Positions 2,229-34,416 of a DNA stretch of 45,775 nucleotides are shown here, one piece after another. Source of the stretch: an uncultured bacterium (lineage in GTDB: Bacteria > SAR324 > NAC60-12); contig CBFIJD010000008.1 in the NCBI GenBank assembly GCA_965662845.1, positions 47,476 to 93,250 on the forward strand, read 5' to 3'. The notes beneath the pieces are model-generated. The model did no database searches. It had not been told where the DNA came from and saw nothing but the letters and a program-made list of their open reading frames with translations. Numbering within the stretch: position 1 is the first letter of the stretch; each line of letters begins with the position of its first letter. A program made the position numbers and the translations under genes.

Positions 2229-3155
2229 TCATTCTTCGGCAAATACGGGGACTTCGGGTAAGAATTGATAACCTGACGTCGCAAGGAAATCCCACAGCGC
2301 CTGGGTCGCAGGCAAGAGCCGCTTTTCGTTCAGGCGGACGACGTGCCACTGACGCACGAGCGGCATGCCGACCACATCCAAGATCGCGAGCCGCTTTTGT
2401 TCCAACTCGGCAGCGATGGTGTGAGCGGAGATAAAGGCAATTCCGAGACCCGCCATCACCCCTTGCTTGATGGATTCATTGCTCCCAATCTCCATCCCAC
2501 CCCGCCAATCGACGCCCTGCTCACTCACAAACTGCTGCAATAGTTGTCGAGTCCCAGAGCCTTGTTCACGCAACAAGATCGTCTCCTTGGTGAGCCGAGA
2601 GAGGGGAATGCGAGATTGCTTGGTGAGCGCATGATCTGGGGGGGCAATGAACACGTGCGGGTGCTCTCCAATGACTTCCGACACCACCTGCACTTCTTTG
2701 GGAGGGCGCCCCATGATCGCAAAGTCAAGCGTAGGCGCGGTGAGGCCCTCCATCGTCTCATCGCGATTTCCTACCGAGAAGGTCAACTGCACTTGTGGGT
2801 GTGCGCGCAAAAACGCCGCGACGGCCTGTGGCACAAAATATTTCGCGGTGCTGATCACGCCAATGGCGATCCGACCGCTGTCAATGCCACGCAAATAGGC
2901 CAGCGACTCCTCACACTCTCGCACAAGCTCTTCAATCTTTTGCGCCATATCGTTCAATTTTTGCCCCGCTTCTGTCAGACGGAAACCCTGCTTGCCTCGC
3001 TCTAGCAAGGGGAGACCGGCCTGCTCTTCAAGCAAGCGTAGCTGCAAGGTGATGGCTGGCGGTGTAACGTCCAGAGCCTCTGCTGCGGTGGTCACTTGTC
3101 CGGTTCGGGCGACCATGCGCAGTGCGCGTAGCTGCTTGAAAGTGAGGTTCTTCAT
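2229..3155 (-). CDS. cbbR: LysR-type Calvin cycle regulator CbbR
   Basis: LysR HTH (TFKQLR...T.AAEALDVTPPAITLQLR), CbbR-typical GVISTAKYFVP, REQGSGTR and SNESIKQGVMAGLGIAFIS.HT. Divergent from the cbb genes. ATG at 3155 with AAGGA RBS. Confidence 0.93.
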   Translation of the reverse strand: MKNLTFKQLRALRMVARTGQVTTAAEALDVTPPAITLQLRLLEEQAGLPLLERGKQGFRLTEAGQKLNDMAQKIEELVRECEESLAYLRGIDSGRIAIGVISTAKYFVPQAVAAFLRAHPQVQLTFSVGNRDETMEGLTAPTLDFAIMGRPPKEVQVVSEVIGEHPHVFIAPPDHALTKQSRIPLSRLTKETILLREQGSGTRQLLQQFVSEQGVDWRGGMEIGSNESIKQGVMAGLGIAFISAHTIAAELEQKRLAILDVVGMPLVRQWHVVRLNEKRLLPATQALWDFLATSGYQFLPEVPVFAEE

Positions 3156-3360
3156 ACCATCCTTTAGTTTTTGTGAAGGGGGTGTAAGAGGAACTAAAAA
3201 AATGTGCCGATCTCGTCTTTTGGAAAGCTGTGCTTCAACTCTCTTGCCAAGAAAATTTAGTCCGACATAAAAGTTAGCAGAATCAGTGATTTGCATGTTA
3301 CCTCGGGCTGGAGTGACATACAATCTCCCGATGGAAAAAGAAGTTTCTTTTGTCAAAAAT

Positions 3361-3394
3361 TTAGTATTTCTGAATATAAACTCAATATTTTTTA
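3361..3394. promoter_or_regulatory. Two CbbR/LysR boxes (TNA-N7-TNA)
   Basis: TTA-gtatttc-TGA (3361-3373) and TCA-atatttt-TTA (3382-3394), 21 bp apart, in the AT-rich cbbR/cbbF spacer and abutting a -35 element. Confidence 0.65.
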
Positions 3395-3395
3395 T

Positions 3396-3424
3396 TTTAC
3401 TTTTGGAAAAGGCTTATGTATCAC
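3396..3424 (+). promoter_or_regulatory. Putative sigma70 cbb operon promoter
   Basis: TTTACT (3396-3401), 17-bp spacer, TATCAC (3419-3424), immediately downstream of the LysR boxes. Followed by the inverted repeat GTCAAAACC/GGTTTTGAC (3439-3469). Confidence 0.55.
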
Positions 3425-3588
3425 TCTTGCCACACTTGGTCAAAACCCTCCGAAATCCTAGGTTTTGACTGGTATGTTTGAACCTTTGAATGTTTTTCAT
3501 TTAGCGAATCTGTTGTTTTTGCTTTTATTCTTAAGAAAAAGTGAATAAGCAGGGCCATCATTCCAAGAGTGTTAGTAGGGAGGACACG

Positions 3589-4638
3589 ATGACTTTGGAA
3601 GAATATTTACGTACCTGGGAAGGCGCGGCAACCGGCGCAGAGCGCGAGCTGCGCGTCGCTGTCGGGCAGACGATCACAGCGTTGATGCAAGGCGCCCCAG
3701 AGCTAGGAGACTTACTTTCACAGGGGCCTCTCGCAGGTCAAATGTCAGCGCTTGTGGGAGAGCACGCAGACGGCGACACCCAAAAAGAGCTGGACCTCCG
3801 CGCCCACGACATGTTCGTCGCGGCGTTGCGCGAGGCTCCGGTCGCCGCTGTTGGCTCTGAAGAAGCCGACGAGGTGGTCTATTTGCGCAGAGACCAACCG
3901 CTCGCGGTCGCCATGGATCCCCTCGACGGCTCGTCTAACATCGACACCAACCTCAGCGTCGGCACGCTCTTCTCAATCTTGCCGATGGACAAAGCCCCTT
4001 CACCCACAGGCGATGGCCCCTTCCTTCAGCCGGGGACTCACCAGCTCGCCGCCGGTTTTGTGATCTTTGGTCCTCAAACCGCGCTGGTGCTCAGCGTGGG
4101 CGAAGGCACGCAAATCTTCATTGAAGACCGCCGCACCGGCACGTTTCATCTGGGCTATGAGAATATTCGCGTCAAGAGCGGCAACCCTGAGTACGCCATC
4201 AACGCCTCCAACTACCGGCACTGGGATGACTCGATTCGCACCTACGTCAACGACTGTCTCTCTGGCGCTGAGGGGCCTCGGGGGCTGAACTTCAACATGC
4301 GCTGGGTGGCATCCATGGTCGCAGATGCCTACCGCATCTTCATGCGCGGCGGCGTTTATCTTTATCCGGCAGACAACCGCAAAGGGTACGGCAAAGGTCG
4401 GCTGCGCTTGGTCTATGAAGCCAACCCGATCGGGATGCTCATGGAGCAAGCCGGTGGCTTGGCGACCGACTGTGAGAACCGCATCTTGGAGATCGTCCCG
4501 ACCTCGCTGCATCAACGCACTCCGCTGGTATTTGGAACCGCTGAGAAGGTGGAGATGATTCGCCGTTATCACCAAGAACTCAACGCTCTGGGAGATCGCT
4601 CGCCGCTCTTCCGCCGGCGCAGCCTGTTCCATCCCTAA
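3589..4638 (+). CDS. cbbF: Class 1 fructose-1,6-/sedoheptulose-1,7-bisphosphatase
   Basis: GD.QK.LD, SEE, DPLDGSSNID.N.SVGT.FS, NMRWVASMVAD and GRLRLVYEANP. ATG at 3589 after GGAGGA. Confidence 0.96.
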   Translation: MTLEEYLRTWEGAATGAERELRVAVGQTITALMQGAPELGDLLSQGPLAGQMSALVGEHADGDTQKELDLRAHDMFVAALREAPVAAVGSEEADEVVYLRRDQPLAVAMDPLDGSSNIDTNLSVGTLFSILPMDKAPSPTGDGPFLQPGTHQLAAGFVIFGPQTALVLSVGEGTQIFIEDRRTGTFHLGYENIRVKSGNPEYAINASNYRHWDDSIRTYVNDCLSGAEGPRGLNFNMRWVASMVADAYRIFMRGGVYLYPADNRKGYGKGRLRLVYEANPIGMLMEQAGGLATDCENRILEIVPTSLHQRTPLVFGTAEKVEMIRRYHQELNALGDRSPLFRRRSLFHP

Positions 4639-4694
4639 CACTCACGGTCTTCTCAGGCCCCGAAACCCGATCACCGCCCGCACAGGAACCTCGC

Positions 4695-5570
4695 ATGTCT
4701 ATCAAGCACCCGATTATCTCGATTACTGGCTCTTCGGGAGCCGGCACCAGCACCGTTCGCCACACCTTTGAGCAGATCTTCCGCCGTGAAAACGTCAAAG
4801 CGGCGTTCATTGAAGGGGACGCCTTCCACGCCTTTGACCGCAAGGGAATGAAAGAAGCGGGGCGTAAAGCCGAAGCGGCAGGCAATTACTCGTTCAGTCA
4901 CTTTGGCCCCGAAGCCAACCTCCTGAGCGAGCTAGAGGCCGTCTTCAAAGAATTTAGCGAGACCGGGAGAGGTCGCACGCGCCATTACATCCACGACGCT
5001 GAAGAAGCCGAGCAATATCACGGAGAACCTGGCACGTTCACGGAGTGGGAGCCGCTCCCAGAAGACGCAGAGATCTTGTTCTATGAAGGGCTGCATGGCG
5101 CCGTCGTCACGGATGAAGTCAACTTAGCGCAGCACGCCGACTTAAAGATTGGGGTCGTCCCCGTCATCAACCTGGAGTGGATTCAGAAGATTCACCGCGA
5201 CAAAGCCAACCGAGGCTATTCCACCGAGGCGGTCACCCAGACCATCCTGCGGCGCATGCACGACTATGTGGAGTATATCTGCCCGCAATTTTCGCAGACC
5301 GACATCAACTTTCAGCGCATCCCGACGGTGGACACCTCCAACCCGTTTGTCTCACGCTGGATTCCCACGCCCGATGAGTCGATGGTCGTGATCCGCTTCG
5401 CCAATCCTTATGGCATTGACTTCTCTTATTTGTTGTCAATGATTCACAGCAGCTTTATGTCTCGCGCCAACTCCATCGTCATTCCGGGTAACAAAATGGA
5501 TTTAGCGATGCAGTTGATCCTCACTCCGTTCATTCATCGCTTGGTTGAGCATAAGCGCCGAGCGGCCTAA
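4695..5570 (+). CDS. cbbP: Phosphoribulokinase (proteobacterial class I)
   Basis: [20 protein letters not shown]-loop, [24 protein letters not shown] and [15 protein letters not shown]. Confidence 0.97.
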
Positions 5571-5659
5571 CTTGGTCTGACCACCACGCGTCGCTCTGCT
5601 GTTCTTCGTCGTACCTGTGCTCGGGCAGGGAAGTAACCTCGTCTCATGGAAGGATTTTT

Positions 5660-7650
<1,991 letters not shown>

Positions 7651-7651
<1 letters not shown>

Positions 7652-8847
7652 TGCCACACATTCGCAAACTAGACGACCTTGACTTGCAAGGAAAACGCGT
7701 GCTCGTTCGCGCTGATTTGAACGTCCCCATGGACGGCGGAACCGTCACCGACGCGACCCGCGTCGAGCGCTTTGCTCCCACAGTGACCCTGCTCCGCGAA
7801 AAGGGCGCAGCCGTCGTGGTCATGAGCCACTGGGGACGCCCAAAGGGCAAGAAGGCTCCCGACATGTCGCTAGCGCCCGTGACGGCGGTGTTGGCCGAGG
7901 CCGTTGGGGGCGCGGTGACCTTCGTGCAGGACTGCATCGGTGCCGAAGCCGAAGCCGCGACCGCCGCCCTCCAAGCTGGGGAGGTGGCGCTGTTGGAAAA
8001 TGTCCGCTTCTATGCTGGCGAAGAAGCCAACGATGACGCCTTCGCTCAGCAGCTCGCCAAGCACGGCGACATTTATGTGAGCGACGCCTTCTCGTCCGCG
8101 CACCGTGCGCACGCTTCTACGCATGCGGTCAGCAAGTTCCTGCCTACATACGCCGGCCCCAGCATGTTCGCTGAACTAGAAGCTCTCCAAGCGGCGCTTG
8201 AAAATCCAGAGCGCCCCGTCGCCGCGTTGGTCGGAGGCGCAAAGGTCTCCAGCAAGATCGACGTGCTCCAGCATCTCGTCCCCCGCATGAACAAACTGAT
8301 CATCGGTGGCGGCATGGCGAACACTTTCTTACTCGCGCTAGGCAAGCCTATCGGAAAGTCTCTCGCCGAGCCTGACTTGATCGAGACTGCCCAGCAGATC
8401 ATCGCGCAAGCCAAAGAGGTCGGCTGCGAGCTAGTCCTCCCTCAAGACGTCGTCGCGGCTTCCGAGTTCAAAGCGCAGGCCTCTTGCCTTGTCCTCGAAG
8501 CGCACATGACCCCTGACGACCGCATGATCCTCGACGTTGGCCCAGTGTCGGTGAGTCAGTATGAGACGCATTTGGAAGAGTGCAAAACCCTGCTCTGGAA
8601 CGGCCCCCTCGGCGCGTTTGAGATGGAACCGTTTGGAGAGGGAACCTTCGCGCTCGCTCGCAAAGCGGCTGAGCTGACCAAAGCGGGCGCTCTGGTGACC
8701 GTGGCCGGTGGCGGAGACACCGTCGCGGCGCTCAACGTCGCAGGCGTGACCGACGACTTTACCTACGTCTCCACGGCTGGCGGCGCCTTCCTAGAGTGGA
8801 TGGAGGGCAAGAAACTGCCGGGCGTCAGCGTTTTGATGCAGGACTGA
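7651..8847 (+). CDS. pgk: Phosphoglycerate kinase
   Basis: RADLNVP, SHWGRPKG, LLENVRF, GGAKVSSKI, WNGPLG.FE, GGGDT and STAGGAFLE. Start overlaps the cbbT stop (TGATG); cbbK position. Confidence 0.97.
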
Positions 8848-8865
8848 GTACCCCCGATCAACCAA

Positions 8866-8899
8866 GGCGAAGTTGCGGCTTCGCCGCCTCTTTTTCTTT
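8866..8899 (+). terminator. Intra-operonic hairpin plus T-rich tract between pgk and cbbA
   Basis: GGCGAAG-ttgcgg-CTTCGCC (8866-8885) followed by gcctcTTTTTCTTT. Confidence 0.45.
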
Positions 8900-8922
8900 C
8901 AACGCACCATTGAGGACACAAC

Positions 8923-9999
8923 ATGGCACGCATCACTCTACGACAACTCTTAGACCACGCCGCTGAAGAGACCTATGGCGTCCCCGCCTTCAACATCAAC
9001 AACATGGAGCAAGTGCTCGCCATCATGGAAGCGGCTCGCGCCGTTGACGCGCCCGTCATTCTGCAAGCCAGCCGAGGCGCTCGCTCCTACGCCGGTGACA
9101 CGATGATTCGCCACATGGTCGAAGCCGCTGAAGAAATGTATCCCGAGATCCCCATCTGTTTGCACCAAGATCACGGCAACAACGAAGCCACTTGTTTCTC
9201 AGCGATTCAGGCCGGGTTCACCTCCGTCATGATGGATGGCTCGCTCGAAGCCGACGCCAAGACGCCAGCCTCTTATGACTACAACTTGAGCATCACCGCA
9301 AAAGTGACCGAGATGTCACACGACGTCGGCGTCTCGGTAGAGGGCGAGCTGGGATGCTTGGGTTCCTTGGAGACTGGCGAGGGGGAGAAGGAAGACGGGC
9401 ACGGCGCCGAAGGCAAGCTCAGCCGAGACCAGCTGCTGACCGATCCCGCTCAAGCCGAAGACTTCGTGAGCCGCACCAAAGTAGACGCTTTGGCGATTGC
9501 GATGGGGACTTCCCACGGCGCGTACAAATTCTCACGCAAACCAGACGGCGACATTCTCGCGATGGAAGTGGTCAAAGAGATCAACCGCCGGATGCCCGGT
9601 CTGCACCTCGTGATGCACGGCTCTTCCAGCGTGCCGCAAGCGCTACAGGATCTGTTCAACGCGTTTGGTGGCGAGATGCCACAGACATGGGGCGTGCCCG
9701 TAGAAGAGATTCAGGAGGGCATCAAATACGGCGTCCGCAAGGTGAATATCGACACCGATTGTCGCTTAGCCATGGCAGGCGCCATGCGCAAAATTGCCCA
9801 AGAGAAGAAGTCGGAGTTTGACCCGCGCAAGTTCCTCAAACCGGCAATGGAGGCGATGCAGCAGCTGGTGAAAGACCGCTATGAGCAGTTCAACACCGCC
9901 GGGCAGGCGTCTAAGATCAAGGTCATCAACGTGCAAGAGATGGCGAAGCGCTACCGTTCGGGATCGCTGGATCTCAGCGCCACAGCGAAAGCGGCGTAA
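8923..9999 (+). CDS. cbbA: Class II fructose-bisphosphate aldolase (Calvin-cycle subtype)
   Basis: [52 protein letters not shown] and KVNIDTD. Confidence 0.97.
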
Positions 10000-10480
10000 G
10001 CGGTTCTGGAGGCCTTTGTTGCACCACACAGAGGCACCTCAAGAAGACAGAAAAATCAGCTTTTGATTCCACGAGCGCCCGTTTGGTCAGACGCGGGTCG
10101 CTCCGTTCGTCTCGAGCCCGTTGAGGTTCTTCAGACCTTCCTCCGCGTGGCTCGGTTCGAACGTCATCTCCCAATGACAGCTCAGCTTGAGGTCATGTCT
10201 GACGCACACAAAATTCGTGGGTCGTCCCGCAGCCCGTTCGCTTGGCTGCGGGGTGAGCCGCAGCGGCGGGCGCATCCTCCCAGCTCCTGCCAAAGCGGCG
10301 CTCTGGATGGTTTCTCTCTTGAGACCATCTTGTGCGTCTCTTTGCTGTTTTTGTGTGGGACGGATAGCGAACCGATTTTGCGCAAAGTCAACGCTGCTGG
10401 CTGCCCATCAAAGTTTGAAAGCAAGAAGACTGTTGCACCCGCGACGTCTCGCATTGCTAACACTTAGCTAGATTGTGAAT

Positions 10481-11071
10481 ATGCAGTTATCTATCGAAGA
10501 ACGCAGGCGAATCCGTGAGCGTTATGCTCGCCAACAAGTGACCCAAAAACAACTGGCAGACGATTTTCAGGTGTCTCTGAGCACGGTCAGTCGCATTCTC
10601 AAATGCCCCGAAGAGAATTTGCATCGACGCCCAGGCAGCGGAAACCCTGGAAAAATTCACGAGCGCGAGCGTCAGTGTTTGGTGCGTTTTGCTGAACAGA
10701 ACCCAGAAGCTCGGCTGCATGAATATGCCAAAGAGCTGGAGAGAGAGTGCGGCGTGCGCGTGAGCCTGCAAACCATCGGCGTGCACCTGAAACGCTTGAA
10801 ATTACCCGCAAAGAAAGCCGCCTTTGCGCTCGCGGGCTCCTCACGCACAAAGAGCCACCGAAGCGCTCTGCGTGCCGGAGCAGAGGCCAACTCCCAGCGC
10901 AGTCGAACCCAAGGCAATCGGGAGAGGAGACACGCGCACGAACCCAACGTGGCAGCAGAAGCCGACTTGATGTTGGGCTATAGCAAGGGCAACAACTATC
11001 CAGAGCGGGTGGAAAGCCCTCGCCTACGCCCCGCCCCGTCGGCGTCCGCTTGCATGTCGCAGACGGCTTGA
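10481..11071 (+). mobile_element. IS630-family transposase N-terminal DNA-binding (HTH) region without DDE domain; remnant or domesticated regulator
   Basis: LS.EER.RI, QLADDFQVSLSTVSRI (HTH), RPGSG.P.K, NP.A.L.E...L...GV.VS..TI...LKRL....KK match IS630 OrfA architecture. No DDE motif seen in any of the three forward frames before rpe. Confidence 0.65.
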
Positions 11072-11141
11072 GTGCCGGAACTCAGCAGAAGCCGCCCCCT
11101 CTGCTCTTTCCTTGTCGTAACGTAATCACTGGAGAGTCACT

Positions 11142-11807
11142 ATGAGCGAAGCCATTATTTCCCCGTCGATCCTGTCTGCTGATTTTGCGCGCCTCGGTGA
11201 AGAGGTCAAAGCCGTCGCTGACGCAGGCGCAGACTGGATTCATGTCGATGTTATGGACGGCCATTTCGTGCCCAATATCACCATCGGCCCAGACGTCGTG
11301 AAGGCCGTTCGACCGTACACTGACAAGGTGTTCGACGTTCACCTCATGATCCAGCCCTGCGATCCTTATTTGGAAGCCTTCGCCACAGCGGGGGCCGACA
11401 TCATCACCGTACACGCGGAAGCGGGCCCGCACCTCGACCGCTCATTGCAGGCGATCAAAGCGCTCGGCAAAAAGGCAGGAGTCTCGTTGAACCCTTCGAC
11501 GCCGGAGACCGTCGTGGAGTATGTGCTAGACCGGCTCGACCTGATCCTCGTGATGACGGTCAACCCAGGCTTTGGCGGACAATCGTTCCTCGAATCACAG
11601 CTGGAGAAGATTCGTCGCCTGCGCCGAATGATTGGCGATCGCAAGATCGCGCTAGAAGTCGACGGCGGCATCAAGCCCGAGAACGCTGGCCGCGTGGCCG
11701 CAGCCGGAGCGGACACCTTTGTCGCGGGCTCAGCGGTCTTCAAAGGCGGCTCTCCCGAACACTACCGCCAGAATATCGAGGCGCTGCGAGCTTCGATCGC
11801 GGGCTGA
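11142..11807 (+). CDS. rpe: Ribulose-phosphate 3-epimerase
   Basis: [45 protein letters not shown] and VAGSAVF. cbbE position. Confidence 0.97.
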
Positions 11808-11856
11808 CACGCTCCCCCTCTCAAACGCGCTCCCCTCACCCCAAATTTCCTCAAAA

Positions 11857-11874
11857 AGGCCCGAGAGCGGGCCT
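11857..11874. terminator. Hairpin downstream of rpe
   Basis: AGGCCCG-agag-CGGGCCT. The A-run is on the 5' side, so a U-tract exists only on the minus strand. Confidence 0.4.
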
Positions 11875-11888
11875 GCTGCGCTCAAAAG

Positions 11889-11916
11889 TTGACGAACAAA
11901 AAAGTTTATATATTGT
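11889..11916 (+). promoter_or_regulatory. Putative sigma70 promoter of the nqr operon
   Basis: TTGACG (11889-11894), 16-bp spacer, TATTGT (11911-11916) at the start of a very AT-rich leader. Confidence 0.55.
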
Positions 11917-11981
11917 TTAGTGCTTGTTTATTAAGAAAAATTAAAAAATAAAGTTGATTTGTTGAGGTTTTAATGTTTTTT

Positions 11982-12015
11982 TTAATTTGAAATTAAGTTG
12001 TTTGAATATTTCTGA
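11982..12015. promoter_or_regulatory. Palindromic/phased TNA-N7-TNA operator upstream of nqrA
   Basis: Perfect dyad TTAATTT-G-AAATTAA (11982-11996), plus TNA triplets at 11983, 11993, 12003 and 12013 (10-bp phasing). Confidence 0.45.
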
Positions 12016-12032
12016 AAATAGGGAGGAGTTTC

Positions 12033-13391
12033 ATGATTCATATTCAGGTCAAGAGGGGGCTCGACCTGCCGATCAAAGGTGAACCGGAGCAGCGGGTGGA
12101 AGACGCGCCGGCGATCTCGCAGGTGGCGTTGACCGGGCTCGATTACGTCGGGCTCAAGCCGAAGATGCTCGTTCAAGAAGGAGACACGGTCGCGCAAGGC
12201 CAGGCCTTGTTTCAAGACAAGCGCTTTCCCACGGTGAACTTCACCGCGCCCTTTGGTGGGAAGGTCACGCATGTTCATCGAGGCCTGCGGCGGTTGCTGC
12301 ACTCCGTTGTGATCCAGCGGGATGAGGGTATCGCGCCGCGTACGTTCCCTGCGCATGCTCCAGAGACCTTAGCGCAGCTGCACCGCGAAGATGTCATCCA
12401 GCAGCTCACCGACTCTGGGCTGTGGACGGCGTTCCGCACTCGCCCCTTCAGCCAAGTCGCCAACCCTGACCCAGAAGCCGCACCGCACGCCTTGTTCATC
12501 AACGCGATGGACACGCAGCCGCTCGCCGCGCAGCCCAAACCGATCATCGAAGCACGCAAAGAGGACTTCCGGCACGGATTGCAAGTCGTCTCGCATCTCC
12601 TCGATGGCAAAATTTATCTCTGTCAAAGCCGAGGCGCGCACATTCCCGGTCACGACCTCCCGCACATCACTCCGGCAGAATTCAGCGGCAAACACCCCGC
12701 AGGGCTGGCGGGCACGCACATCCACTTCCTCTGTCCCGCCCACGCAGAGCGCACTGTTTGGACGATCAACTACCAAGACATCCTCGCCATCGGTCATCTC
12801 TTCACAACGGGGACGCTCGACAACCACCGCGTGATCTCTTTCGCGGGGCCGGCGGTTCAGCAGCCGCGGCTGTTGCGTGTTCCGCTGGGATCCTCGCTGC
12901 GAGAGCTGTCACGAGGAGCATTAGTCGGCGACACCAACCGCATCATTTCGGGGTCGGTGCTGTCGGGGAGAACCGCAGCGCCTGGCTTGGACTTTTTAGG
13001 ACGCTACCACCTTCAGGTCTCCGCGCTACAAGAAGGATATGAGCGGGAGTTCCTTGGCTGGCTCGCGCCGGGCTTAGAGCGGTTCTCGATTCGGAATGTG
13101 TTCCTCTCAGGATTGAAGAAAGCGCCAAAGTTCAGCTTCACGACCTCCACGCAGGGGAGCCCACGCGCGATTGTGCCGATTGGCATGTATGAAGACGTGA
13201 TGCCGCTCGACATCGAACCCACCTTCTTGCTCAAAGCCTTAGTGAGTGGGGACACGGAGGAAGCCCAGCGGCTCGGCTGTTTGGAATTAGACGAAGAAGA
13301 CCTCTCGCTTTGCAGCTTTGTGTGTCCCGGAAAAGCCGACTATGGTCCGGCGCTGCGCCATGCCCTCAACCACATCGAAAAGGAGGGCTGA
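12033..13391 (+). CDS. nqrA: Na+-translocating NADH:quinone reductase subunit A
   Basis: [38 protein letters not shown] and [26 protein letters not shown]. Confidence 0.97.
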
Positions 13392-14608
13392 TGAAAGCAT
13401 TCCGCAAAACCTTGGACCGCATCGAACCCTTGGTCTCACGCAATGGCGGCAAATATCCGGGGCTGTATCCATTCTACGAGGCGCTAGACACATTCCTGTA
13501 CACGCCTGGAACCGTGAACAAGGGCCAGACGCATGTGCGAGACGGGCTCGACCTGAAGCGCATGATGATCACCGTCGTGATCGCGCTCATGCCCTGTGTG
13601 CTCTTTGGGCTCTACAACACGGGCTACCAAGCGAACCTTGCGATGGCGAACTTGGGGCTCGAGACCACCGTGGGCTGGCGCGGCGATCTCATCGGCTTAT
13701 TGGGCGTTGGATATGACCCCAGCAGCGTCTTCGCGAATGTGTTCCACGGTGCGCTATATTTCATTCCCGTATATCTCGTCTGCAATTTGACCGGCGCCTT
13801 TTGGGAAGGACTCTTCGCGTCTGTGCGCAAGCACGAGATCAACGAAGGCTTCTTGGTCACTGGGATGCTGATTCCGCTGATCATGCCGGCGACGATTCCG
13901 CTGTGGCAGGTGATTGTGGCCACCTCCTTCGCCGTTGTGGTGGGGAAAGAGGTCTTCGGCGGCACGGGGAAGAATTTTCTCAATGTGGCGCTGCTGGCGC
14001 GGGCGTTTCTATATTTTGCCTATCCTGCGCAGATCAGTGGCGATGCGGTCTGGACAGCCGTGGACGGCTACACCGCGGCGACCCCGCTCGGGCTGGCGGC
14101 CTCAGGCGGTTTGAACGCGATGTCTGGAACGGGCATCGAGTGGAGCGACGCCTTCTTGGGTTCGATCTCAGGCTCGATGGGCGAGACCTCAGCCCTCGCT
14201 GTGCTGCTGGGCGCGGCTTATCTCATCTATACCGGGGTCGCTTCGTGGCGGGTGATGGTCGCTTGTCTGCTCGGCGCTTTGGCGCTGACGGGGCTGATCT
14301 ACTCCGTCGGCAGCGAGACTAACCCCATGTATAGCATTCCTCCCCACTGGCATCTGGTGCTCGGGGGCTTCGCTTTCGGCGCCGTCTTCATGGCGACGGA
14401 TCCGGTGACCTCGCCGTCAACTTCGATGGGCAAGTGGATCTACGGGTTCCTCATCGGTTTTATGGCGATGCTCATCCGCACCTTAAACCCCGCGTACCCG
14501 GAAGGGGTCTTCGCCATCCTCCTCCTCAATGTCTTTGCTCCCACCATTGATTACTACGTAGTCAAGGCCAACATCCGACGCAGAAAGGCTCGCTATGCAG
14601 AAGGATAG
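13391..14608 (+). CDS. nqrB: Na+-NQR subunit B
   Basis: [35 protein letters not shown] and [22 protein letters not shown] (FMN-Thr motif). ATG overlaps the nqrA stop. Confidence 0.97.
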
Positions 14609-15380
14609 TATGATGGGCACCTTCGTCGTGGCGGTGGTGCTGTGTGTTGTGTGCTCCGTGATGGTCTCTTCAGCCGCCGTCTTGCTGAAGCCGATGCAGG
14701 AGCGGAATGCTGCGTTGGAGAAAAAGCGCAACATCCTCTTAGCCGCTGGGATCTCAGCGCAAGGTGCTGACGCGATTGAAAAGCAGTTCGGCGAGAAGAT
14801 CACCGTCCAGCTCGTAGACCTCGCAAGCGGCGATTACATCCCCGCAGCCCTTGGGCTAGACCCGCTGACGTATGACCAGCGCCGCGCGGCTCGGGATGGA
14901 GATTTGAGCCTTGAGATTGAAGACAGAGAAGACATCGCGGGAATCCAACGTCGCGCGAACATCGCCCCCGTTTATCTGATGTACGAAGAAGACCAACTGC
15001 AGAAGGTGATCCTGCCCGTGCACGGTAAAGGGCTGTGGTCAACAATGTATGGTTTTATGGCGCTCGAAGCAGACCTCAACACCGTCGCGGGGTTTTCGTT
15101 CTATGAGCACGCAGAGACCCCCGGGCTCGGAGGGGAAGTCGATAACCCCAACTGGAAGAAGCTCTGGCTCGGTAAGCAGGTGTTCAACGACGATGGCGAG
15201 GTCGCCGTGCGCGTGATCAAAGGCTCTGTGCAGCCCGAAGAAGTCGGCGCAGAGTACAAAGTCGATGGGATCGCTGGCTCTACCATTACCGGTGACGGCG
15301 TCACAAATCTGCTGCACTTCTGGCTTGGTGGCAGCGGCTTCGGGACTTACTTGAAAAAACTCAAACTCCAGCAGACGTGA
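14595..15380 (+). CDS. nqrC: Na+-NQR subunit C
   Basis: N-terminal TM helix, [31 protein letters not shown] and [13 protein letters not shown] (FMN-Thr). Confidence 0.97.
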
Positions 15381-15387
15381 GGCTCCT

Positions 15388-16041
15388 ATGGCAAAACTCT
15401 CGGTGAAAGAGACCCTGTTCGCGCCGGTCTTTGACAACAACCCCATCGCGCTCCAAATCCTTGGCATTTGCTCAGCGCTCGCGATCTCTAACAAGCTGGA
15501 GACGGTCTTTGTGATGAGCCTCGCGGTGATCTTCGTAGCCGCGTTCGCAAACTTCGCGATCAGCCTGATCCGCAACTTCATCCCAGGCAGCATCCGCATG
15601 ATCGTGCAGATGGTGATCATCGCCTCGCTGGTGATCGTCGTCGATCAATTCCTCAAAGCCTATGCTTACGACGCGAGCAAGCAGCTCTCCGTTTTCGTGG
15701 GGCTGATCATCACGAACTGTCTCATCATGGGACGCGCCGAAGCCTTCGCGATGCAGAACCCTCCGCTGATTAGCTTTGTGGATGGCCTTGGCAACGGCCT
15801 TGGCTACAGCGTGATCTTGCTCGCCGTTGGGGTCGTGCGAGAGCTGTTCGGCTCCGGCAAGCTGATGGGCTTTGAAATCCTGCCGCTGATCAATGAAGGC
15901 GGCTGGTACATCCCCAATGGCTTGCTGGCGCTGCCACCGAGCGCGTTCTTTTTGATCGGCTTCTTCATTTGGGGGCTGCGCAGCTGGAAGCGTGACCAGA
16001 TTGAACCCGAAACTGCCGACAAACCCGCCACGGCTCACTAA
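15388..16041 (+). CDS. nqrD: Na+-NQR subunit D
   Basis: [38 protein letters not shown] and NGLL.LPPSAFF. Confidence 0.97.
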
Positions 16042-16051
16042 GGAGGACACC

Positions 16052-16663
16052 ATGCTAGAAGCCTACTTAAGCCTGATGATTAAGGCGATTTTTGTGGAAA
16101 ACCTCGCGCTGTCCTTCTTCTTGGGGATGTGCACCTTCTTGGCAGTCTCCAAGAAAGTCGACACCGCCGTCGGACTCGGCGTCGCTGTGATAGTGGTGCA
16201 GACCATCACCGTCCCTGTGAACAACCTGCTCTACACCCACATCCTGCAACAGGGCGCTTGGGCTTGGGCGGGCATGCCAGAGTTAGATCTGAGCTTCCTC
16301 GGGTTGATCAGCTACATCGGCGTCATCGCGGCGATGGTGCAAATTTTAGAGATGACCCTCGACCGCTACTTCCCACCGCTTTACAACGCGCTCGGCGTGT
16401 TCCTACCGCTGATCACGGTCAACTGCGCGATTCTCGGTGGCTCCTTGTTCATGGTGGAGCGCAGCTACAACTTCGGACAGAGCGTTGTGTTCGGGGTCGG
16501 CTCCGGCATCGGCTGGATGCTAGCGATTGTCGGGCTGGCCGGCATTCGTGAGAAGCTGCGCTACAGCGAAGTCCCCGAAGGACTGCGCGGGCTCGGCATC
16601 ACGTTCATCATCGTCGGGCTGATGTCCATGACGTTCATGGAGTTCTCAGGGATCAAGCTCTGA
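16052..16663 (+). CDS. nqrE: Na+-NQR subunit E
   Basis: [41 protein letters not shown] and [14 protein letters not shown] at 16052 after AGGAGG. Confidence 0.97.
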
Positions 16664-16773
16664 GGCTCTCGTTGTTGTTTCAGCATTCCCGTCACGGCTC
16701 TGTCGCAAAAGACCCGTGGACGGGGATTTGAGTCGCAAACCGCTCATTTTTGTAACTAAGAGAGGAGCATCCA

Positions 16774-18000
16774 ATGGACGTAATCTCGCTGGGCGTGGTG
16801 ATGTTCACGCTGATTGTGTTGTCGCTGGTGACGATCATTTTGCTGGCCAAATCCAAGCTCGTGCCTGCGGGCGATGTGCGCATTGATGTCAACGAAGACG
16901 ATCGCCTGTCCTTCACTGGAGGACGCGGCGGCAAGCTGCTCAATCGCCTCGCCGAGCGCCAAATCTTCTTACCCTCGGCGTGTGGAGGCGGAGGGACCTG
17001 CGCGCAGTGTCGCGTGAAGGTGTTTGAAGGCGGAGGCTCGATTCTGCCCACGGAAGAGACCTACATCAACAAGCGCGAAGCAGTAGAAGGCATCCGCCTC
17101 GCGTGTCAGGTCAACGTCAAAGAAGACATGCGCATCGAGGTCCCCGAAGAGTGCCTCGAAGTCAAGAAGTGGGAGTGTACGGTGCGCTCCAACAAAAACG
17201 TCGCGACCTTCATCAAAGAGCTGGTGCTCGAGCTTCCCAAAGGCGAGACGATTGACTTCCGGGCCGGCGGGTACATCCAGATTGAGTGTGGGCCTCACAC
17301 GATCTCGTTCAAAGACTTCGATGTGGAAACCGAATACCGCGAAGACTGGGACAAGTATGACTTCTGGAAGTACACCTCCAAGGTGGAGGAAGAGGTCATC
17401 CGCGCCTACTCCATGGCGAGTTATCCCGAAGAGAGAGACGTCATTATCTTGAACGTCCGCATCGTGCCCCCGCCTGCCGATCGCCCAGATTTGCCACCAG
17501 GGAAGATGTCCACCTTCATCTTCAATATGAAGCCTGGCGACAAGGTTCAAGTGTCCGGTCCTTACGGCGAGTTCTACGCCCGAGAGACGGACGCGGAGAT
17601 GGTCTTCATCGGCGGGGGCGCAGGGATGGCGCCGATGCGTTCGCACATTTTCGATCAACTCGTGCGCCTGAAGTCTAAGCGCAAAATCAGCTTCTGGTAT
17701 GGAGCGCGAAGTGTGCGCGAGATGTTCTACGTTGAAGAGTTCGACAAACTCGCCGCAGCGAACGAGAACTTTGTGTGGCACACCGCCCTCTCGGATCCTC
17801 TGCCGGAAGACAACTGGTCTGGCCACACCGGCTTCATCCATCAAGTGCTGCACGATGAGTATCTGAAGGATCACCCCGCGCCCGAAGACTGCGAGTATTA
17901 CATCTGTGGGCCGCCAATCATGAACAGCTCCGTCACCAAAATGCTGCTCGACCTCGGGGTGGAGCAGGACAACATCATGTACGACGACTTTGGAATCTAA
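16774..18000 (+). CDS. nqrF: Na+-NQR subunit F
   Basis: [12 protein letters not shown] [2Fe-2S], RLACQV, RAYSMA (FAD), [20 protein letters not shown] and C-terminal DDFG. Confidence 0.98.
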
Positions 18001-18009
18001 GGAGACAGC

Positions 18010-18216
18010 ATGGAGATGTTTATCGCCAGCGGGGTGGTGATGTTGATCGCGATCACGGGCATGGCCGTCGGAGTGATCTTCGCGCAAAAGCCGATCCAAG
18101 GCTCGTGTGGCGGCATCAAAACGCTCAAGGGTCTGTTGGGGAGCGGTCCCTGCGAACTCTGCGAACGCAAAGAACAGTGCAAAAATCGCCAAGACAGCGC
18201 ACGCGATTTCGGGTGA
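18010..18216 (+). CDS. nqrM: Na+-NQR maturation factor NqrM (DUF539)
   Basis: Single TM helix ending GMAVGVIF, then KPIQGSCGG and three further Cys (C..C...C). Located after nqrF. Confidence 0.88.
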   Translation: MEMFIASGVVMLIAITGMAVGVIFAQKPIQGSCGGIKTLKGLLGSGPCELCERKEQCKNRQDSARDFG

Positions 18217-18250
18217 ACAACCGTCTGAGAAACCAACCAAGGGAGAGAAC

Positions 18251-19240
18251 ATGGAAGCAATCAATCGCCGCACGCTGCTGAAATCCGCAGGAGTGATGGG
18301 GCTCGTACTCGCAGGGGCTGGGCTTGGCCCCACGCTCTGGACACGCGACAAAGAGCTGGTGCGTCAGTCGCGCTTGTTGATGGGAACCATCGCCGACATC
18401 CGCGTGTTGCATGACGACAAACCCAGCGCCGAGGTCGCGGTTCGGGCAGCCTTCGAGGAGATCGCTCGGCTGCAACGTCTGCTGTCCCGCTATGAAGAGA
18501 CCAGTGACATCGGGCGTTCCAACCGGCTGGCGTTCCAACGCGACGTATCGGTTTCACCAGAGACCGTGGAGGTCTTGCAGCGAGGTCTGACTTGGGCAGA
18601 GCGCACCACAGGTCGCTTCGACCCCGCAATCGGCAGCATCAGCAAGGTGTGGGATGTCCGCAATCGCAAGGAGCTTCCCGCCACGGAGAGCTATGCCTCG
18701 CTGGCAAACCAGCAGTTCTTTCGCCAAGTAGAGCTGCGGACTACCACGAACGGCGGCACCGTGCGCTTCCACGACGAGCGCGTGCAGTTGGACTTAGGAG
18801 GGATCGGCAAGGGCTACGCAGCGGATCAAGCGGCTGCGGTGCTCCGAGCGCACGGCATCTCGCAAGCGTTGATCAACTTAGGCGGCGATTTGGTCGCGGT
18901 CGGTAGCAAAGCCGAAGGGCAAGCGTGGCGTATTGGCCTGAAAGATCCCAACGACCCTTCCAAAATGGCGCGAGTTCTGGAACTGAGCGACGAGGCGCTG
19001 GCGACGTCAGGCAACTACGAGCAGTTCTTCCGGGGTGCGGATCAGCAGATCTATCACCACCTGATGGACCCGACCCTCGCCCGCCCTGCGCGGACAAAAT
19101 TCCACAGCTTCACCGTGTTTGCCCCGACCGGATGTGACGCGGACGCGCTGGCGACAGGCTTGTTCGGGGTTGATGAGACGACCTCGAAGTCTCTGGTGAG
19201 CGCGACTTCTGCGCAGATTAAGCTGCTGCACCTGAGCTGA
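18251..19240 (+). CDS. apbE: FAD:protein FMN transferase ApbE
   Basis: MGT, LSRY...SD, G.FDPAIG, LDLGGIGKGYAAD, NLGGD, ATSGNYE, YHHLMDP and ADALAT. Tat-like RRTLLK N-terminus. ATG at 18251. Confidence 0.95.
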   Translation: MEAINRRTLLKSAGVMGLVLAGAGLGPTLWTRDKELVRQSRLLMGTIADIRVLHDDKPSAEVAVRAAFEEIARLQRLLSRYEETSDIGRSNRLAFQRDVSVSPETVEVLQRGLTWAERTTGRFDPAIGSISKVWDVRNRKELPATESYASLANQQFFRQVELRTTTNGGTVRFHDERVQLDLGGIGKGYAADQAAAVLRAHGISQALINLGGDLVAVGSKAEGQAWRIGLKDPNDPSKMARVLELSDEALATSGNYEQFFRGADQQIYHHLMDPTLARPARTKFHSFTVFAPTGCDADALATGLFGVDETTSKSLVSATSAQIKLLHLS

Positions 19241-23800: not shown

Positions 23801-24018
23801 TCCTGGGGCTCATGCCGATTGTGTTTGAGCAGTCTTTGCAAGCGCGCTTCATCATTCCGATGGCGATTGGTTTGGCGTTTGGGGTGATGTTCGCGACGGT
23901 GATTATCCTGTTCTTGATTCCAGTGCTTTATCTGATCTTGCACGATCTGCAATCATTGTTTCACCGCAACCGAGATGCCGATGAAATTTCCATGACGGTG
24001 ATCCGCTCTCATTCTTAA
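20884..24018 (+). CDS. RND efflux transporter permease (AcrB/AcrD/AcrF family)
   Basis: 1044 aa. YPGASP.EVE, GIVVDDAIVVGENI, GVVVNDSLILVD and RFRPILLTSLTT.LGL.P. Confidence 0.95.
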   Translation: MIAWMTRHPVASNLLMFLILVGGWTLGSNVKQEIFPEFALDFVNVTVSYPGASPAEVEESLVVPLENALRGVAGIKTIEATAAEGGANLTVEVEAGEDVQRVKDDMQGAVDRITTLPDDAESPRVSAVQLRNEVLNVMVYGDAPERSLREWALEVRNELLNHPGITQVELERLRNFEITIELKQQALSQYGLTLPVIAQKIQQSTLDLPGGRLQTDGGDILIRTKEQRYSGQEYARVPILNTDSGSVLLGDIATIRDGFEESDVRVRYNGFPAERLQVYRVSDQTPTAISEAARGVIVQLENRLPLGVSAAVLFDRSIILQERIDLLLRNLWMGLVLVLLVLALFLNLELSFWIMLGIPISFAGALFVMPSLDASINMISLFAFILVLGIVVDDAIVVGENIYAHHERGESWMRAAVKGTEEIGRPVLTTILTTIAAFLPFFFIPGVFGKFFQVIPYVVIATLIFSLIEVIFILPAHLGHKTPRWIQFFVQPLDDRLRQVRAFCSTHLQRIIEGPYRRYLHLALEFRYATLMLGIVALMLCGGLVGSGHMKFTFFPRIDSDVIFVNASFPFGTTLSVTERLEARLLDEADQLLQGYEQRQGVPVHDGVYSILGGGGTHRLQVILFLKPLGERGFAAQEFARKWETAVGEVAGLERINFNASTGVGAESDIEVQFTHPNGQVLESVVAQVKDALLSYNGVTNVDDSRADGKEEIRLRLSPEGLALGLNARELTRQVSAAFQGLEVTTLLRDSEEVTVKLRLPPEERRSLRDLTGLLVATPQGGQVPLARVALLEQGLAESSITRIDTRRVLNVQADIDASVGGNAGQVIKALQTEVLPSLQEQYPQLQTSFEGAKSDQDETFAGIQQGGVVALFIIYSLLALQFRSYTQPMIIMTAIPFGIVGSVIGHLLLGFDLSVVSVLGIVALSGVVVNDSLILVDFINQKRAQGLSLLPSVVESGMRRFRPILLTSLTTFLGLMPIVFEQSLQARFIIPMAIGLAFGVMFATVIILFLIPVLYLILHDLQSLFHRNRDADEISMTVIRSHS

Positions 24019-24044
24019 CAGTCCCTTTGCTCGTGAAACACCCC

Positions 24045-26327
24045 ATGCCCGAGACCTACCTCTTTCCTGCCGACCAACTCTCCCAAACGTTCCAACAAAG
24101 CTGGAGGGAACAAGGCGCTCTGGAACTCAGCCTTGACGGGTGCCGACTGCGCGTTGTGACTCGCCCTGCATGGACGATGAAATCAGTAGATGGCAGCGGA
24201 CAACGCCAGTTTTATTGGGCCGAAGGGCGTGTGTTGTTGCAGCGGGCAAGCGGCCTGTGGACCAATGCCGATCAGGCGGCGTTTGAGGACTGCCTGACAG
24301 ACGTGTTGCAGGCGCTCCCCGAGCGTAACCACTACATGATCTATCCAGAGGTTGACTTTTGTGAGCAGGATTCCTTTCAACTCGCCGTGTTGCAGTTTTG
24401 GCGGCAGGAAGCCTCGAAAGTTGGGGAAGTCGCGGTGGTGCTGAACCCGTTTTTTCGCACCCACGCGATGCGCTTGCGGCTCTCGCTCTCTCGCTCAGCA
24501 GAGCAACTTGGGGTGTATGAAGACGCGACCGCGGCGCTGCAATATCTCCTGCGCCGACCCATCCAGCCCGTGCCGACCGAACCCACGACGCAAGCCGACT
24601 TCAGCAGGCTGTTCCCACAGACTCCGCGAGAACAAGAACAAGCGCTCGAGATGATTTCAAAGATGGTGCTCACGCCGCCGAATGAACCCTATGAAGTGGC
24701 GCTCCCAGAACAAGTTTCAACGGATCTGCGGCATTTCTATGAAGCGTTGCGGTTGCTGCGCGGTCACATGGAAGAGCAGGCGCGCCGTTACCAAGAGCAG
24801 CTACAGACGCGCGACAACATCATCACCGCGCATGTGCGACAGCTGGAAGATCAGCTGGAGTGGGCCCGTTTTGCAGAGCGTTTGGGAGAGCTGACGTCGT
24901 GGCGGGTCCGTCTACGGACGATGCGTTTGGAGTTTCAAGACCAAAACGATTGGGAAGAGTGGGGGCTGCCCGCTCGTTTGCGAGAACGGCCCGCGTTGGA
25001 GATCGCCGAGTTCATGGCGACGGAGCTGGTGCACCCAGAAGACGCGACCACCTTTTTGCGCACGTTTCAAAATGCCCTAGAGACGTGGTCTGGCTTTGAT
25101 ATCACCTTCCGAATGCGAGATGCCTCCGGAGTCTGGCTGCACGTGCGGAACCTCGCGACCTTTCACCAAGGAGCCAGTGAAGAGGCCTTTTTGATGGGGG
25201 GGCTGCAAGACTTGACCTTGATGACGGTCATGCACGATGAGCGAAGGCGCCATCAACAACGCATGGAAGCGGCGGTTGCCCAGGCCTATCACCCGATCTT
25301 GCTGCTGTCGTTAGAAGGCGCGATTCTCAAAGCGAATCATGCGGCAGAGGATCTTCTGCAAGGTCAGCTGGTGGGCAAATCGTTACACTCGCTGGTGCAG
25401 CCAGAGGAGCGTCCGCTAGTAGACCAGCTCCTTGAGCAACTCGCTGGGGGAGCGCAGAAGAGGCTACAGGCCATGTTGCAAATGTGGAGATCGGAAAGGC
25501 CGCTGCCGGTCCGGTTGAGCCTCGCGGCGATTTTAGATGGCCAACAAGAGCTGGAGGGGCTGATCGCGCATGTGGAAGACCTCTCTGAGCTGCGGACGAC
25601 CCAAGACATGCTGGCGCAGTCAGCCAGGCTCGCGACGATCGGAGAAACCGCCGCGAGCTTGGCCCATGAACTCAAGTCTCCGCTGGGAGCGATCCGTCTG
25701 AAGGCCGAGATGCTAATGATGCTCTCTGAAACCCAAGAGAGCCTTCCGAGCGCGCGGGTGAACAGCAAACTGCAAGAAGTTGTTAAAATTGCCGATAAGG
25801 CGAACCAACTGTTGCAGCAGATGCGTAATTTTTCGAGGAATGCGCAGCGAGAGGAGAAGCAATACTGTCAATTGAGCGTGATTTTGACAGATGTTTTGTT
25901 ACTCATTCAAGGGTCGTTAGACAAATCGCAGGTGAAAGTGCACCTGAAGTTGCCCCCGCAGCTCCCTCCAGTGTGGGGGAACCCAACTCAGCTGGAACAA
26001 GTGTTCATCAATCTGTTCAGCAACGCCCGAGACGCAATGGAACATCGCTCGAATCGGCAAATTATCGTCAGCGCGGAGGGAGTCGAAGTGATGCACGTGC
26101 AGGTGAAAGACACAGGGGCTGGGATGTCCGAGGAAGTCAGGAGTCGGCTGTTTGAGTCGTTTTACACCACGAAAAAACGAGGAGAAGGCACCGGTTTGGG
26201 AATGGCGATTGTGCGACGCATCATTGAAGAGCACCACGGCACCATAGAAGTTGAGAGCGTCGTGAATGAGGGGACTACGTTTCACCTGCGGTTGCCACTC
26301 AACCCCGAGTTCGCCAAGACTGCGTGA
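24045..26327 (+). CDS. Cytoplasmic PAS-domain sensor histidine kinase (NtrB-like core)
   Basis: VHPED PAS motif and a second PAS. H-box ARLATIGETAASLAHELKSPL, N-box QLEQVFINL..NA.DA, DTGAGM, F.T.K...GTGLG. No TM segment seen. Confidence 0.9.
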   Translation: MPETYLFPADQLSQTFQQSWREQGALELSLDGCRLRVVTRPAWTMKSVDGSGQRQFYWAEGRVLLQRASGLWTNADQAAFEDCLTDVLQALPERNHYMIYPEVDFCEQDSFQLAVLQFWRQEASKVGEVAVVLNPFFRTHAMRLRLSLSRSAEQLGVYEDATAALQYLLRRPIQPVPTEPTTQADFSRLFPQTPREQEQALEMISKMVLTPPNEPYEVALPEQVSTDLRHFYEALRLLRGHMEEQARRYQEQLQTRDNIITAHVRQLEDQLEWARFAERLGELTSWRVRLRTMRLEFQDQNDWEEWGLPARLRERPALEIAEFMATELVHPEDATTFLRTFQNALETWSGFDITFRMRDASGVWLHVRNLATFHQGASEEAFLMGGLQDLTLMTVMHDERRRHQQRMEAAVAQAYHPILLLSLEGAILKANHAAEDLLQGQLVGKSLHSLVQPEERPLVDQLLEQLAGGAQKRLQAMLQMWRSERPLPVRLSLAAILDGQQELEGLIAHVEDLSELRTTQDMLAQSARLATIGETAASLAHELKSPLGAIRLKAEMLMMLSETQESLPSARVNSKLQEVVKIADKANQLLQQMRNFSRNAQREEKQYCQLSVILTDVLLLIQGSLDKSQVKVHLKLPPQLPPVWGNPTQLEQVFINLFSNARDAMEHRSNRQIIVSAEGVEVMHVQVKDTGAGMSEEVRSRLFESFYTTKKRGEGTGLGMAIVRRIIEEHHGTIEVESVVNEGTTFHLRLPLNPEFAKTA

Positions 26328-26401
26328 ACAAAGCGTTTTTTGACGCTTAACAAATGAATCACCGCTTTTCTGACAAAGAACAGATTTTTTGCCGCAGAGG
26401 G

Positions 26402-26430
26402 TTTACAAGCGCTAAACAAGGTGTTACCTT
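26402..26430 (+). promoter_or_regulatory. sigma70-type promoter with no downstream same-strand CDS
   Basis: TTTACA (26402-07), 17-bp spacer, TACCTT (26425-30), with extended -10 TG at 26422-23. Confidence 0.55.
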
Positions 26431-26432
26431 TT

Positions 26433-26620
26433 TGTGCCTGTCTGGAAGCGATGCCCGCCGCCAAGGGCTTTCCGACGCTATCAATCGACGTGCTTGCAGG
26501 ATGCAACTTAAACAGGGTTTAAGAGCGTCGATTGTGTTCTAGCGCAGTGAAACTCAGCTTGCCTCGCCCTTTCGATGCTCCGCCCACGATCCCCTCATCC
26601 CACAAAATTGCTTCGGCACA
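26433..26620 (+). ncRNA. Candidate structured non-coding RNA (~185 nt), family unassigned
   Basis: Nested stems TGTGCC/GGCACA, GAAGCGAT/ATTGCTTC, AAGGGC/GCCCTT, CGCTA/TAGCG and CAATCGACG/CGTCGATTG, capped by hairpins TTGCA-GGA-TGCAA and CTTAAAC-AGG-GTTTAAG. Lies in a 390-bp convergent spacer behind a promoter. Confidence 0.5.
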
Positions 26621-26715
26621 CCTCCGTTGTCTGAACACCTTCAAAAGCTCTTCCCAAAAGTCAGTGCAAAGTTTTACAAATAAGCAAATGGAAGCGACGT
26701 CCGTGGCGTTGGCGC

Positions 26716-29071: not shown

Positions 29072-29100
29072 TCACCTCCAATGTGAAGTGGTGCGGCGTC

Positions 29101-30273: not shown

Positions 30274-30364
30274 GGAGATGGTTTCAATGAAGTTGGAAAG
30301 TCCGAGGGGCGGTTTCAAGACAGATTTAGAAGAGTAGCACAATCGATGGTCTATACCAAATTCC

Positions 30365-31579: not shown

Positions 31580-31583
31580 GCGT

Positions 31584-31856: not shown

Positions 31857-31865
31857 ACATCCTCC

Positions 31866-32618: not shown

Positions 32619-32641
32619 GGAGAGGCCGTCGTTTCAGAAGG

Positions 32642-34353: not shown

Positions 34354-34416
34354 GTATACTTCCTGTGGGCATTGGGGACGGCGTTCTGGCGGCGCTTCCG
34401 TGTGGCTGGGCCGAGC

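Follow-up and report, generated by a model that had tools for sequence, protein, structure and literature searches.

A Calvin cycle operon that encodes phosphoribulokinase (PRK) and lacks any RuBisCO gene raises the question of what becomes of the ribulose-1,5-bisphosphate (RuBP) that its products would make. Such an operon, composed of cbbR, cbbF, cbbP, cbbT, pgk, cbbA and cbbE, lies in a 45,775-nucleotide stretch of DNA (hereafter the window, meaning the whole stretch analysed) on contig C8 of the genome of an uncultured SAR324 bacterium (3.22 Mb in 129 contigs, 95% complete, 1.5% estimated contamination). A preliminary description, made from the window alone, held that RuBisCO had been relocated or deleted by insertion sequence (IS) activity, and that PRK in a genome without RuBisCO would be a dead end, implying a non-canonical use of RuBP or a very recent loss of autotrophy. 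We found a RuBisCO elsewhere in the genome and consider it rather probable (roughly 65%), on the basis of comparative sequence analysis, that the window carries the RuBP-regenerating half of a split Calvin cycle, whose carboxysomal RuBisCO, encoded on contig C5, is likely to have been acquired afterwards from another donor and to have taken the place of the enzyme once encoded in the operon.

RuBisCO and alpha-carboxysome genes on a second contig

Genome-wide profile searches for RuBisCO gave no match on the window contig, in agreement with the preliminary description, and detected intact form I cbbL and cbbS genes on C5. The cbbL product scored above the PF00016 and NF003252 cut-offs, had no stops in its frame and contained the stretch GLDMTKDDE, which we take to be the carbamylation motif, as well as other active-site stretches whose roles we likewise presume. 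Both genes belong to a cluster of the form cbbLS-csoS2-csoSCA-csoS4A/B-csoS1-csoS1-bfr-acRAF-like, in which acRAF is the name that we assume for a gene resembling pterin dehydratases and bfr is a ferritin-like gene. Next to it, on the opposite strand, lie a Nudix gene, a csoS1D/ccmP-like gene and a bicA-like transporter gene. The cso models TIGR02701, TIGR02703, NF053791, PF12288 and PF03319 exceeded their cut-offs on C5; csoS2 fell under both NCBIfam equivalog cut-offs. With cbbLS clustered with csoS2, csoSCA, csoS4 and csoS1, this region can be classified as a putative alpha-carboxysome locus.

The genome also encodes gap, tpi and rpiA (RpiB was not found in it), and cbbP was its sole PRK-family match, with a product that aligned end to end with the solved PRK 1A7J. 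CbbF is assumed, from family knowledge, to have sedoheptulose-1,7-bisphosphatase (SBPase) activity as well. A full predicted Calvin-Benson-Bassham gene set is present as open frames (RuBisCO, PRK, Pgk, Gap, Tpi, aldolase, fructose-bisphosphatase (FBPase), Tkt, Rpe and Rpi), and this bacterium likely fixes CO2 by this cycle. Since intact cbbLS genes are encoded on C5, PRK has its sink. This refutes the dead end envisaged at first, and leaves a genome devoid of RuBisCO, a recently lost autotrophy and RuBP put to non-canonical use without support. Cytosolic PRK is predicted to make RuBP and the carboxysome to fix CO2 from imported bicarbonate; thiosulfate oxidation, suggested by a soxB gene scoring above its cut-off, would provide the energy.

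The puzzle as it had been posed is one of ordinary split organisation. According to the preliminary description, a normal cbbLS or cbbM locus elsewhere, together with the same split conserved in relatives, would make it so. The C5 genes supply the former; the latter was not seen, since in the eight congeners searched (67-99% complete) neither PRK nor form I/II RuBisCO was detected.

A form IV RuBisCO-like protein encoded on contig C3 was considered as an alternative sink and rejected: its motif reads GVDIIKDDH, its gene surroundings are of sugar type, it fell under all true-RuBisCO NCBIfam cut-offs and it is not needed. Its gene cluster (L006 3652-9669, G000:C3) includes an mtnA-like isomerase, a fused transketolase, a class II aldolase and sugar ABC genes, and broken copies occur in congener G005.

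An alphaproteobacterial-type operon with relics in related genomes

The best 80 PRK loci in the genome collection were mostly alphaproteobacterial, with enzymes 69-76% identical to that of the window, and the proteobacterial PRK model matched 2 of the 88 genomes available for the class (35 of which are at least 90% complete). Three of the eight congeners had RuBisCO-like matches only. The available text of two surveys (PMC8364033, PMC9031357) reports the Calvin cycle in deep SAR324 clades and type IV proteins only in surface genomes; from the RuBisCO-like-only pattern we infer that the congeners belong to the surface clade.

Although no PRK was found in them, the congeners carry several relics of a cbb operon. 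Synteny with the four congeners examined is seen in genes that lie to the left of the operon; in congeners, a cbbR gene, intact or decaying, adjoins trx and faces pgk, with ~195 bp in place of cbbFPT. At other genomic positions, five of the eight have a cbbE homologue (67-74% identical, one of them partial) and three a broken cbbA. In phylogenetic trees of pgk, cbbR, cbbE and cbbA, the four genes that were covered (38 of 90, 31 of 66, 28 of 49 and 34 of 67 rows used, respectively), the window and congener sequences formed starred clades (97, 99, 98 and 99, in the same order) among alphaproteobacterial cbb genes. The closest pgk neighbours came from loci L082, L014 and L029, and in L082 and L029 the same R-F-P-T-pgk-A order is followed directly by RuBisCO. 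By its gene order and by these four trees, the window operon is of alphaproteobacterial type.

Because relics persist in the congeners and fall in shared clades with the window genes, the operon likely entered before this genome split from its congeners and decayed in them afterwards. The genus ancestor would have taken up an alphaproteobacterial cbbRFPT-pgk-A-(RuBisCO)-E operon, from which the sister species would have lost cbbF, cbbP, cbbT and RuBisCO while retaining pgk and rpe. The single-copy state of pgk and rpe by itself favours such partial retention. As a separate observation, the congener cbbA copies (L198-L200, in G003, G005 and G007) adjoin a GH32 glycosidase gene distant from pgk, with a sugar-use cluster in G005 and G007.

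A carboxysome island probably gained later

The carboxysome genes form a 12.4-kb island on C5, both flanks of which are syntenic with the two congeners examined, where the flanking genes are ~200 bp apart. Both csoSCA and csoS2 were found in a single one of the 88 class genomes, namely this one. The C5 cbbL shares 96.6% identity with a form I protein of Chromatiaceae and 76-83% with five further form I enzymes from the class, and an approximately unbiased (AU) test rejected a single clade uniting it with these five (p 1.2e-6); its close neighbours in the tree were taken from the query's own 90% cluster. The best csoSCA homologue among the matches listed was that of an Ectothiorhodospiraceae bacterium (61%). 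Third-position G+C is 0.41-0.61 in the carboxysome genes, lower than in cbbF, cbbP, cbbT, pgk, cbbA and cbbE (0.70-0.75).

A later, separate gain of the carboxysome appears to be the simplest reading of these data. Once acquired in this lineage, the carboxysome would have made the operon's own RuBisCO dispensable. That the operon's enzyme was itself relocated to C5 is unlikely, since the C5 sequence clusters with those of carboxysomal type and stands separate from the form I enzymes that related cbb operons encode. Judging from congener synteny, operon and island both appear to belong to the genome backbone, and homologues of a housekeeping gene adjoining the island bear names that begin with 'SAR', which we take to mean SAR324.

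The interval between cbbA and cbbE

In 27 of the 31 loci that had cbbA and cbbE in order among the best 80 PRK loci, many of them from Bradyrhizobium and hence not independent, RuBisCO lies between these two genes; the view that RuBisCO normally occupies this slot thus stands. In the window, a tblastn search of 10000-11141 with cbbL (two form I types), cbbM, cbbS, cbbX, cbbQ and cbbO detected no relic of RuBisCO or activase (best E 0.16).

What the interval does contain had been described as structured DNA and an IS630-like helix-turn-helix (HTH) open reading frame (ORF), and both descriptions proved sound. Residues 16-125 of the ORF match the NCBIfam IS630 transposase at 49.9 bits (cut-off 100), and its DNA is homologous to an IS630 element found in two congeners, which measures 1030 bp, has terminal repeats and carries a frameshift in its DDE half. 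The remnant shares with that element the N-terminal HTH half, aligning with the first 338 bp of the coding sequence only (67% DNA identity) and ending at the frameshift site, and it has neither the DDE half nor the terminal repeats. The DDE half is absent from it both in frame and past the frameshift, and that of the congeners had no match on C8. In the search for terminal inverted repeats with a TA target, the best match to the congener ends had 10-11 mismatches in 22, so that a diverged repeat could escape; past residue 152, the tail of the remnant had no listed match. IS630 homologues occur in 6 of the 87 other class genomes, four of them congeners, and more fragments are scattered on contigs C25, C92, C35, C90, C34, C96 and C31 of this genome. 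The HTH ORF is a decayed element, predicted to be immobile, of an IS630 family that the genus harbours, and its frame remains open (nonsynonymous divergence, dN, ~0.24 and synonymous divergence, dS, ~2 or more against the congener elements).

The structured part stands out by its predicted folding. The segment 10000-10480 has a z-score of -4.8, a fold that none of 100 shuffles equalled, and 10201-10360, the best of 10 scanned 160-nt segments, reaches z -6.9 on the plus strand versus -3.8 on the minus strand; among 150 randomly sampled non-coding 160-nt segments (of 277 present on the 12 largest contigs) none reached z -4. Three hairpins inside an outer stem make up the predicted fold of 10196-10365. 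No Rfam covariance model matched at E <=1 and no tRNA or tmRNA was detected across 9900-12100, and homologues of the element were found neither in the 88 class genomes (DNA search and single-sequence covariance model) nor in 38 further sources, nor in plasmid and phage records. Two sets of candidate relatives were rejected: among 113 viral loci selected with two hairpin patterns, 7 matched the model weakly (<=24 bits), as expected from the selection method, and a 56-nt look-alike on contig C10 lies inside long ORFs and had no useful E-value in nhmmer. Our best guess is a terminator for the operon, a processing structure or mobile-element debris.

Alternative explanations

Several observations weigh against a RuBisCO replaced by that of the carboxysome. 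The evidence comes from one genome, 95% complete, and from trees made quickly, with a single model, from thinned sets. Neither the slot nor the sequence behind pgk of four congeners yielded any relic of cbbL, cbbM, cbbS or an activase, so that the former presence of RuBisCO in the slot is deduced from other taxa only. Among the best 80 genome loci (PRK <=76%) and the best 80 metagenome loci (pgk <=62%), none came from a close relative whose slot is filled, and RuBisCO is likewise missing between cbbA and cbbE in 4 of the 31 related loci. The tetranucleotide distance of the island (85th-89th percentile) does not make it an outlier, the third-position G+C of cbbR is just 0.59, and neither a CbbQ nor a CbbX activase was found in the genome.

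In the sequence of events that we favour, the IS630 fragment would sit in a vacated slot as a passenger or as the cause of the vacancy. A causal role is rather doubtful, although compatible with replacement by the carboxysome, since it concerns the cause only: insertion of IS630 with an adjacent deletion would have eliminated the slot RuBisCO together with the element's own 3' half, with the carboxysome as a back-up. The 5' transposase half found in the slot and the pieces scattered on seven other contigs, which show that the family was active in this lineage, agree with it, but a single adjacent deletion leaves the disappearance of both terminal repeats unexplained and the order of events is not readable from one genome. 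Of the original proposal of IS activity, deletion by the element is what survives, as a possibility only, given a 5' transposase half that has no terminal repeat.

It is unlikely that no replacement took place at all, with an operon that arrived without a slot RuBisCO, like that of some alphaproteobacteria, operon and carboxysome both residing in the genus ancestor, and congeners that lost both. Such a history would fit the slot without RuBisCO relics, the four exceptional loci among the 31 and a locus (L031) with cbbRFPTA-(cbbX-like)-E beside csoS1 and csoSCA genes. Against it, the congeners retain several relics of the operon but showed none of the island at the corresponding site, csoSCA and csoS1D have a lower third-position G+C that points to a later arrival, and the loci of closest gene order (L082 and L029) do have RuBisCO directly 3' of cbbA.

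We regard as improbable that the structured element and the HTH protein constitute a small domesticated regulatory unit (an RNA plus a DNA-binding protein) for cbbE or the operon. The fold, far beyond background and stronger on the plus strand, and the open HTH frame with its dN and dS values would suit such a unit; nevertheless, a low dN/dS is to be expected of an element that was once an active transposon, the tail of the HTH protein has no homologue among the matches listed, and neither has the RNA in the class genomes, Rfam, or plasmid or phage records. Finally, that the C5 carboxysome is a binning or assembly contaminant, leaving a genome truly endowed with PRK and no RuBisCO, is hardly credible: the fragmentation and estimated contamination of the assembly and the lack of csoS2 and csoSCA in the other class genomes could be invoked for it, but the island lies inside a 125-kb contig, the congener-syntenic genes on either side argue against contamination, the flanks have a composition typical of the genome, and cbbL, cbbS, csoS1D and the neighbouring ylqF are each found on 2 contigs in the protein collection.

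Gene content of the operon and its surroundings

All the cbb genes first listed for the window were confirmed as matching open frames (Table 1), in the order cbbR(divergent)-F-P-T-pgk-A-[1.1 kb]-E. The probable start of cbbR is 3155, where the alignment of a 302-amino-acid congener protein begins, and the likely start of cbbF at 3589 has a Shine-Dalgarno-like GGAGG immediately 5'. Motifs of the CbbR type (TNA-N7-TNA) number 6 in the 445 bp 5' of cbbF, 4 in the 839 bp 5' of cbbL and 0 in the cbbA-cbbE gap; these are raw counts, not used as evidence.

Table 1 Features of the window operon and of the carboxysome locus (window positions unless a contig is given).
Feature	Position	Strand	Remarks
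cbbR, LysR-type regulator	2229..3155 (longest ORF to 3356)	-	NF045990 CbbR 341.6 bits, under cut-off 450
cbbF, class I fructose-bisphosphatase	3541..4638, probable start 3589	+	
cbbP, proteobacterial-type PRK	4695..5570	+	NF011997 above cut-off
cbbT, transketolase	5660..7651	+	
pgk, phosphoglycerate kinase	7648..8847	+	one genomic copy; 'K' of the preliminary description
cbbA, class II fructose-bisphosphate aldolase	8923..9999	+	
cbbA-cbbE interval	10000..11141		1142 bp; position of RuBisCO in most related operons
Strongly folding multibranch element	10196..10365	+	170 nt, one copy, predicted -89 kcal/mol, several G-U pairs
IS630 remnant, HTH half of transposase and tail	10481..11071 (ORF start 10475/10481)	+	IS630 homology 10480-10816
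cbbE (rpe), ribulose-phosphate 3-epimerase	11142..11807	+	one genomic copy
Putative alpha-carboxysome cluster	C5 ~23975-35163		

Around the operon, a siaC-family gene (1293-1685) lies between trx and cbbR, which are adjacent in congeners, and a complete nqrA-F operon with an apbE-like gene is found 3' of cbbE (12033-19240). As nqrA was not found in the 5 congeners searched, the nqr operon may be another lineage-specific gain or retention. A tRNA-Met gene occupies 44837-44913.

Comparison with known systems

The window operon most resembles the alphaproteobacterial cbbR-cbbFPT(G)(pgk)A-cbbLSX/cbbM-cbbE operons (L082, L029, L024, L014 and Bradyrhizobium), with which it has in common the divergent cbbR, the gene order and PRK, aldolase and Rpe sequences that are 70-78% identical. 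In L082 the order is R-F-P-T-pgk-A-cbbM-E. These operons have RuBisCO and an activase in the slot whereas the window has neither, and its host is not an alphaproteobacterium. In a Geminicoccaceae genome (L031 7862-20802), cbbRFPTA, a cbbX-like gene and cbbE, without cbbLS in the slot, stand beside csoS1 and csoSCA, a possible parallel case of carboxysome replacement.

Two genomes of another genus of the family (L088 5887-17075 and L089 8298-15636) both have the order glpX-prk-tkt-fba-[slot]-rpe. The slot of this glpX type holds cbbM in G018 and form I cbbLS plus two more genes in G024, and seems to be exchangeable there too; the two extra genes presumably correspond to cbbQ and cbbO. These deep-water SAR324 belong to the same class as our genome and share with it form IA RuBisCO and sulfur oxidation genes, according to the available text of PMC9031357 and PMC8364033; they differ in their single operon, a glpX-type FBPase, a PRK only ~30% identical and a non-carboxysomal RuBisCO between fba and rpe.

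FBPase, aldolase and transketolase genes are usually clustered with those for RuBisCO and PRK, as stated in the accessible part of PMC7895386. In another genome of the same order (G033; L090, L095 and L096), form I RuBisCO, form II RuBisCO and PRK are found at three separate places. In Acidithiobacillus ferrooxidans, as described in the accessible part of PMC2942843, the cbbP operon is separate from the form I RuBisCO and carboxysome operons, as here; there, the divergent neighbour of cbbR is the RuBisCO operon cbb1, and CbbR did not bind to the cbbP operon. Unlike in A. ferrooxidans, cbbR stands here at the PRK operon and the island has no cbbR-like gene.

Alpha-carboxysomes have been described mainly from Proteobacteria and Cyanobacteria, and the cso locus of proteobacterial chemoautotrophs and alpha-cyanobacteria shares cbbL, cbbS, csoS2, csoSCA, csoS4A/B, csoS1, csoS1D, bfr and an acRAF-like gene with C5 (PMC9164163, accessible part). 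The C5 locus departs from known ones in its SAR324-like host, in the CbbQ and CbbX that were not found and in a csoSCA at most 61% identical to its homologues among the matches listed. The word 'carboxysome' is absent from the main text of three reports (PMC8364033, PMC9031357 and PMC12168267), whose supplements could list such a locus; SAR324 is not named in the accessible part of a microcompartment catalogue (PMC8217296), and no published SAR324 carboxysome was found by titles and abstract openings, although supplements could list one.

Split cbb loci being already known, what remains is an alpha-carboxysome in a SAR324-like genome whose Calvin cycle is a mosaic, along with vestiges of lost autotrophy in the congeners. 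The balance is even, in our judgement, on the fuller statement that this is the first SAR324 lineage with a CO2-concentrating alpha-carboxysome, after the swap of an alphaproteobacterial-operon RuBisCO for a gammaproteobacterial-type carboxysome, with the orphan cbbR and pgk of the sister species marking an autotroph-descended genus. The locus would extend alpha-carboxysomes to a lineage for which no report was found in our literature searches, and the relics in the congeners suggest that their non-autotrophy is a loss rather than the ancestral state. As a Calvin cycle assembled from two donors, it would also be a clear natural example with which to ask whether the CbbR of the operon took control of the incoming carboxysome.

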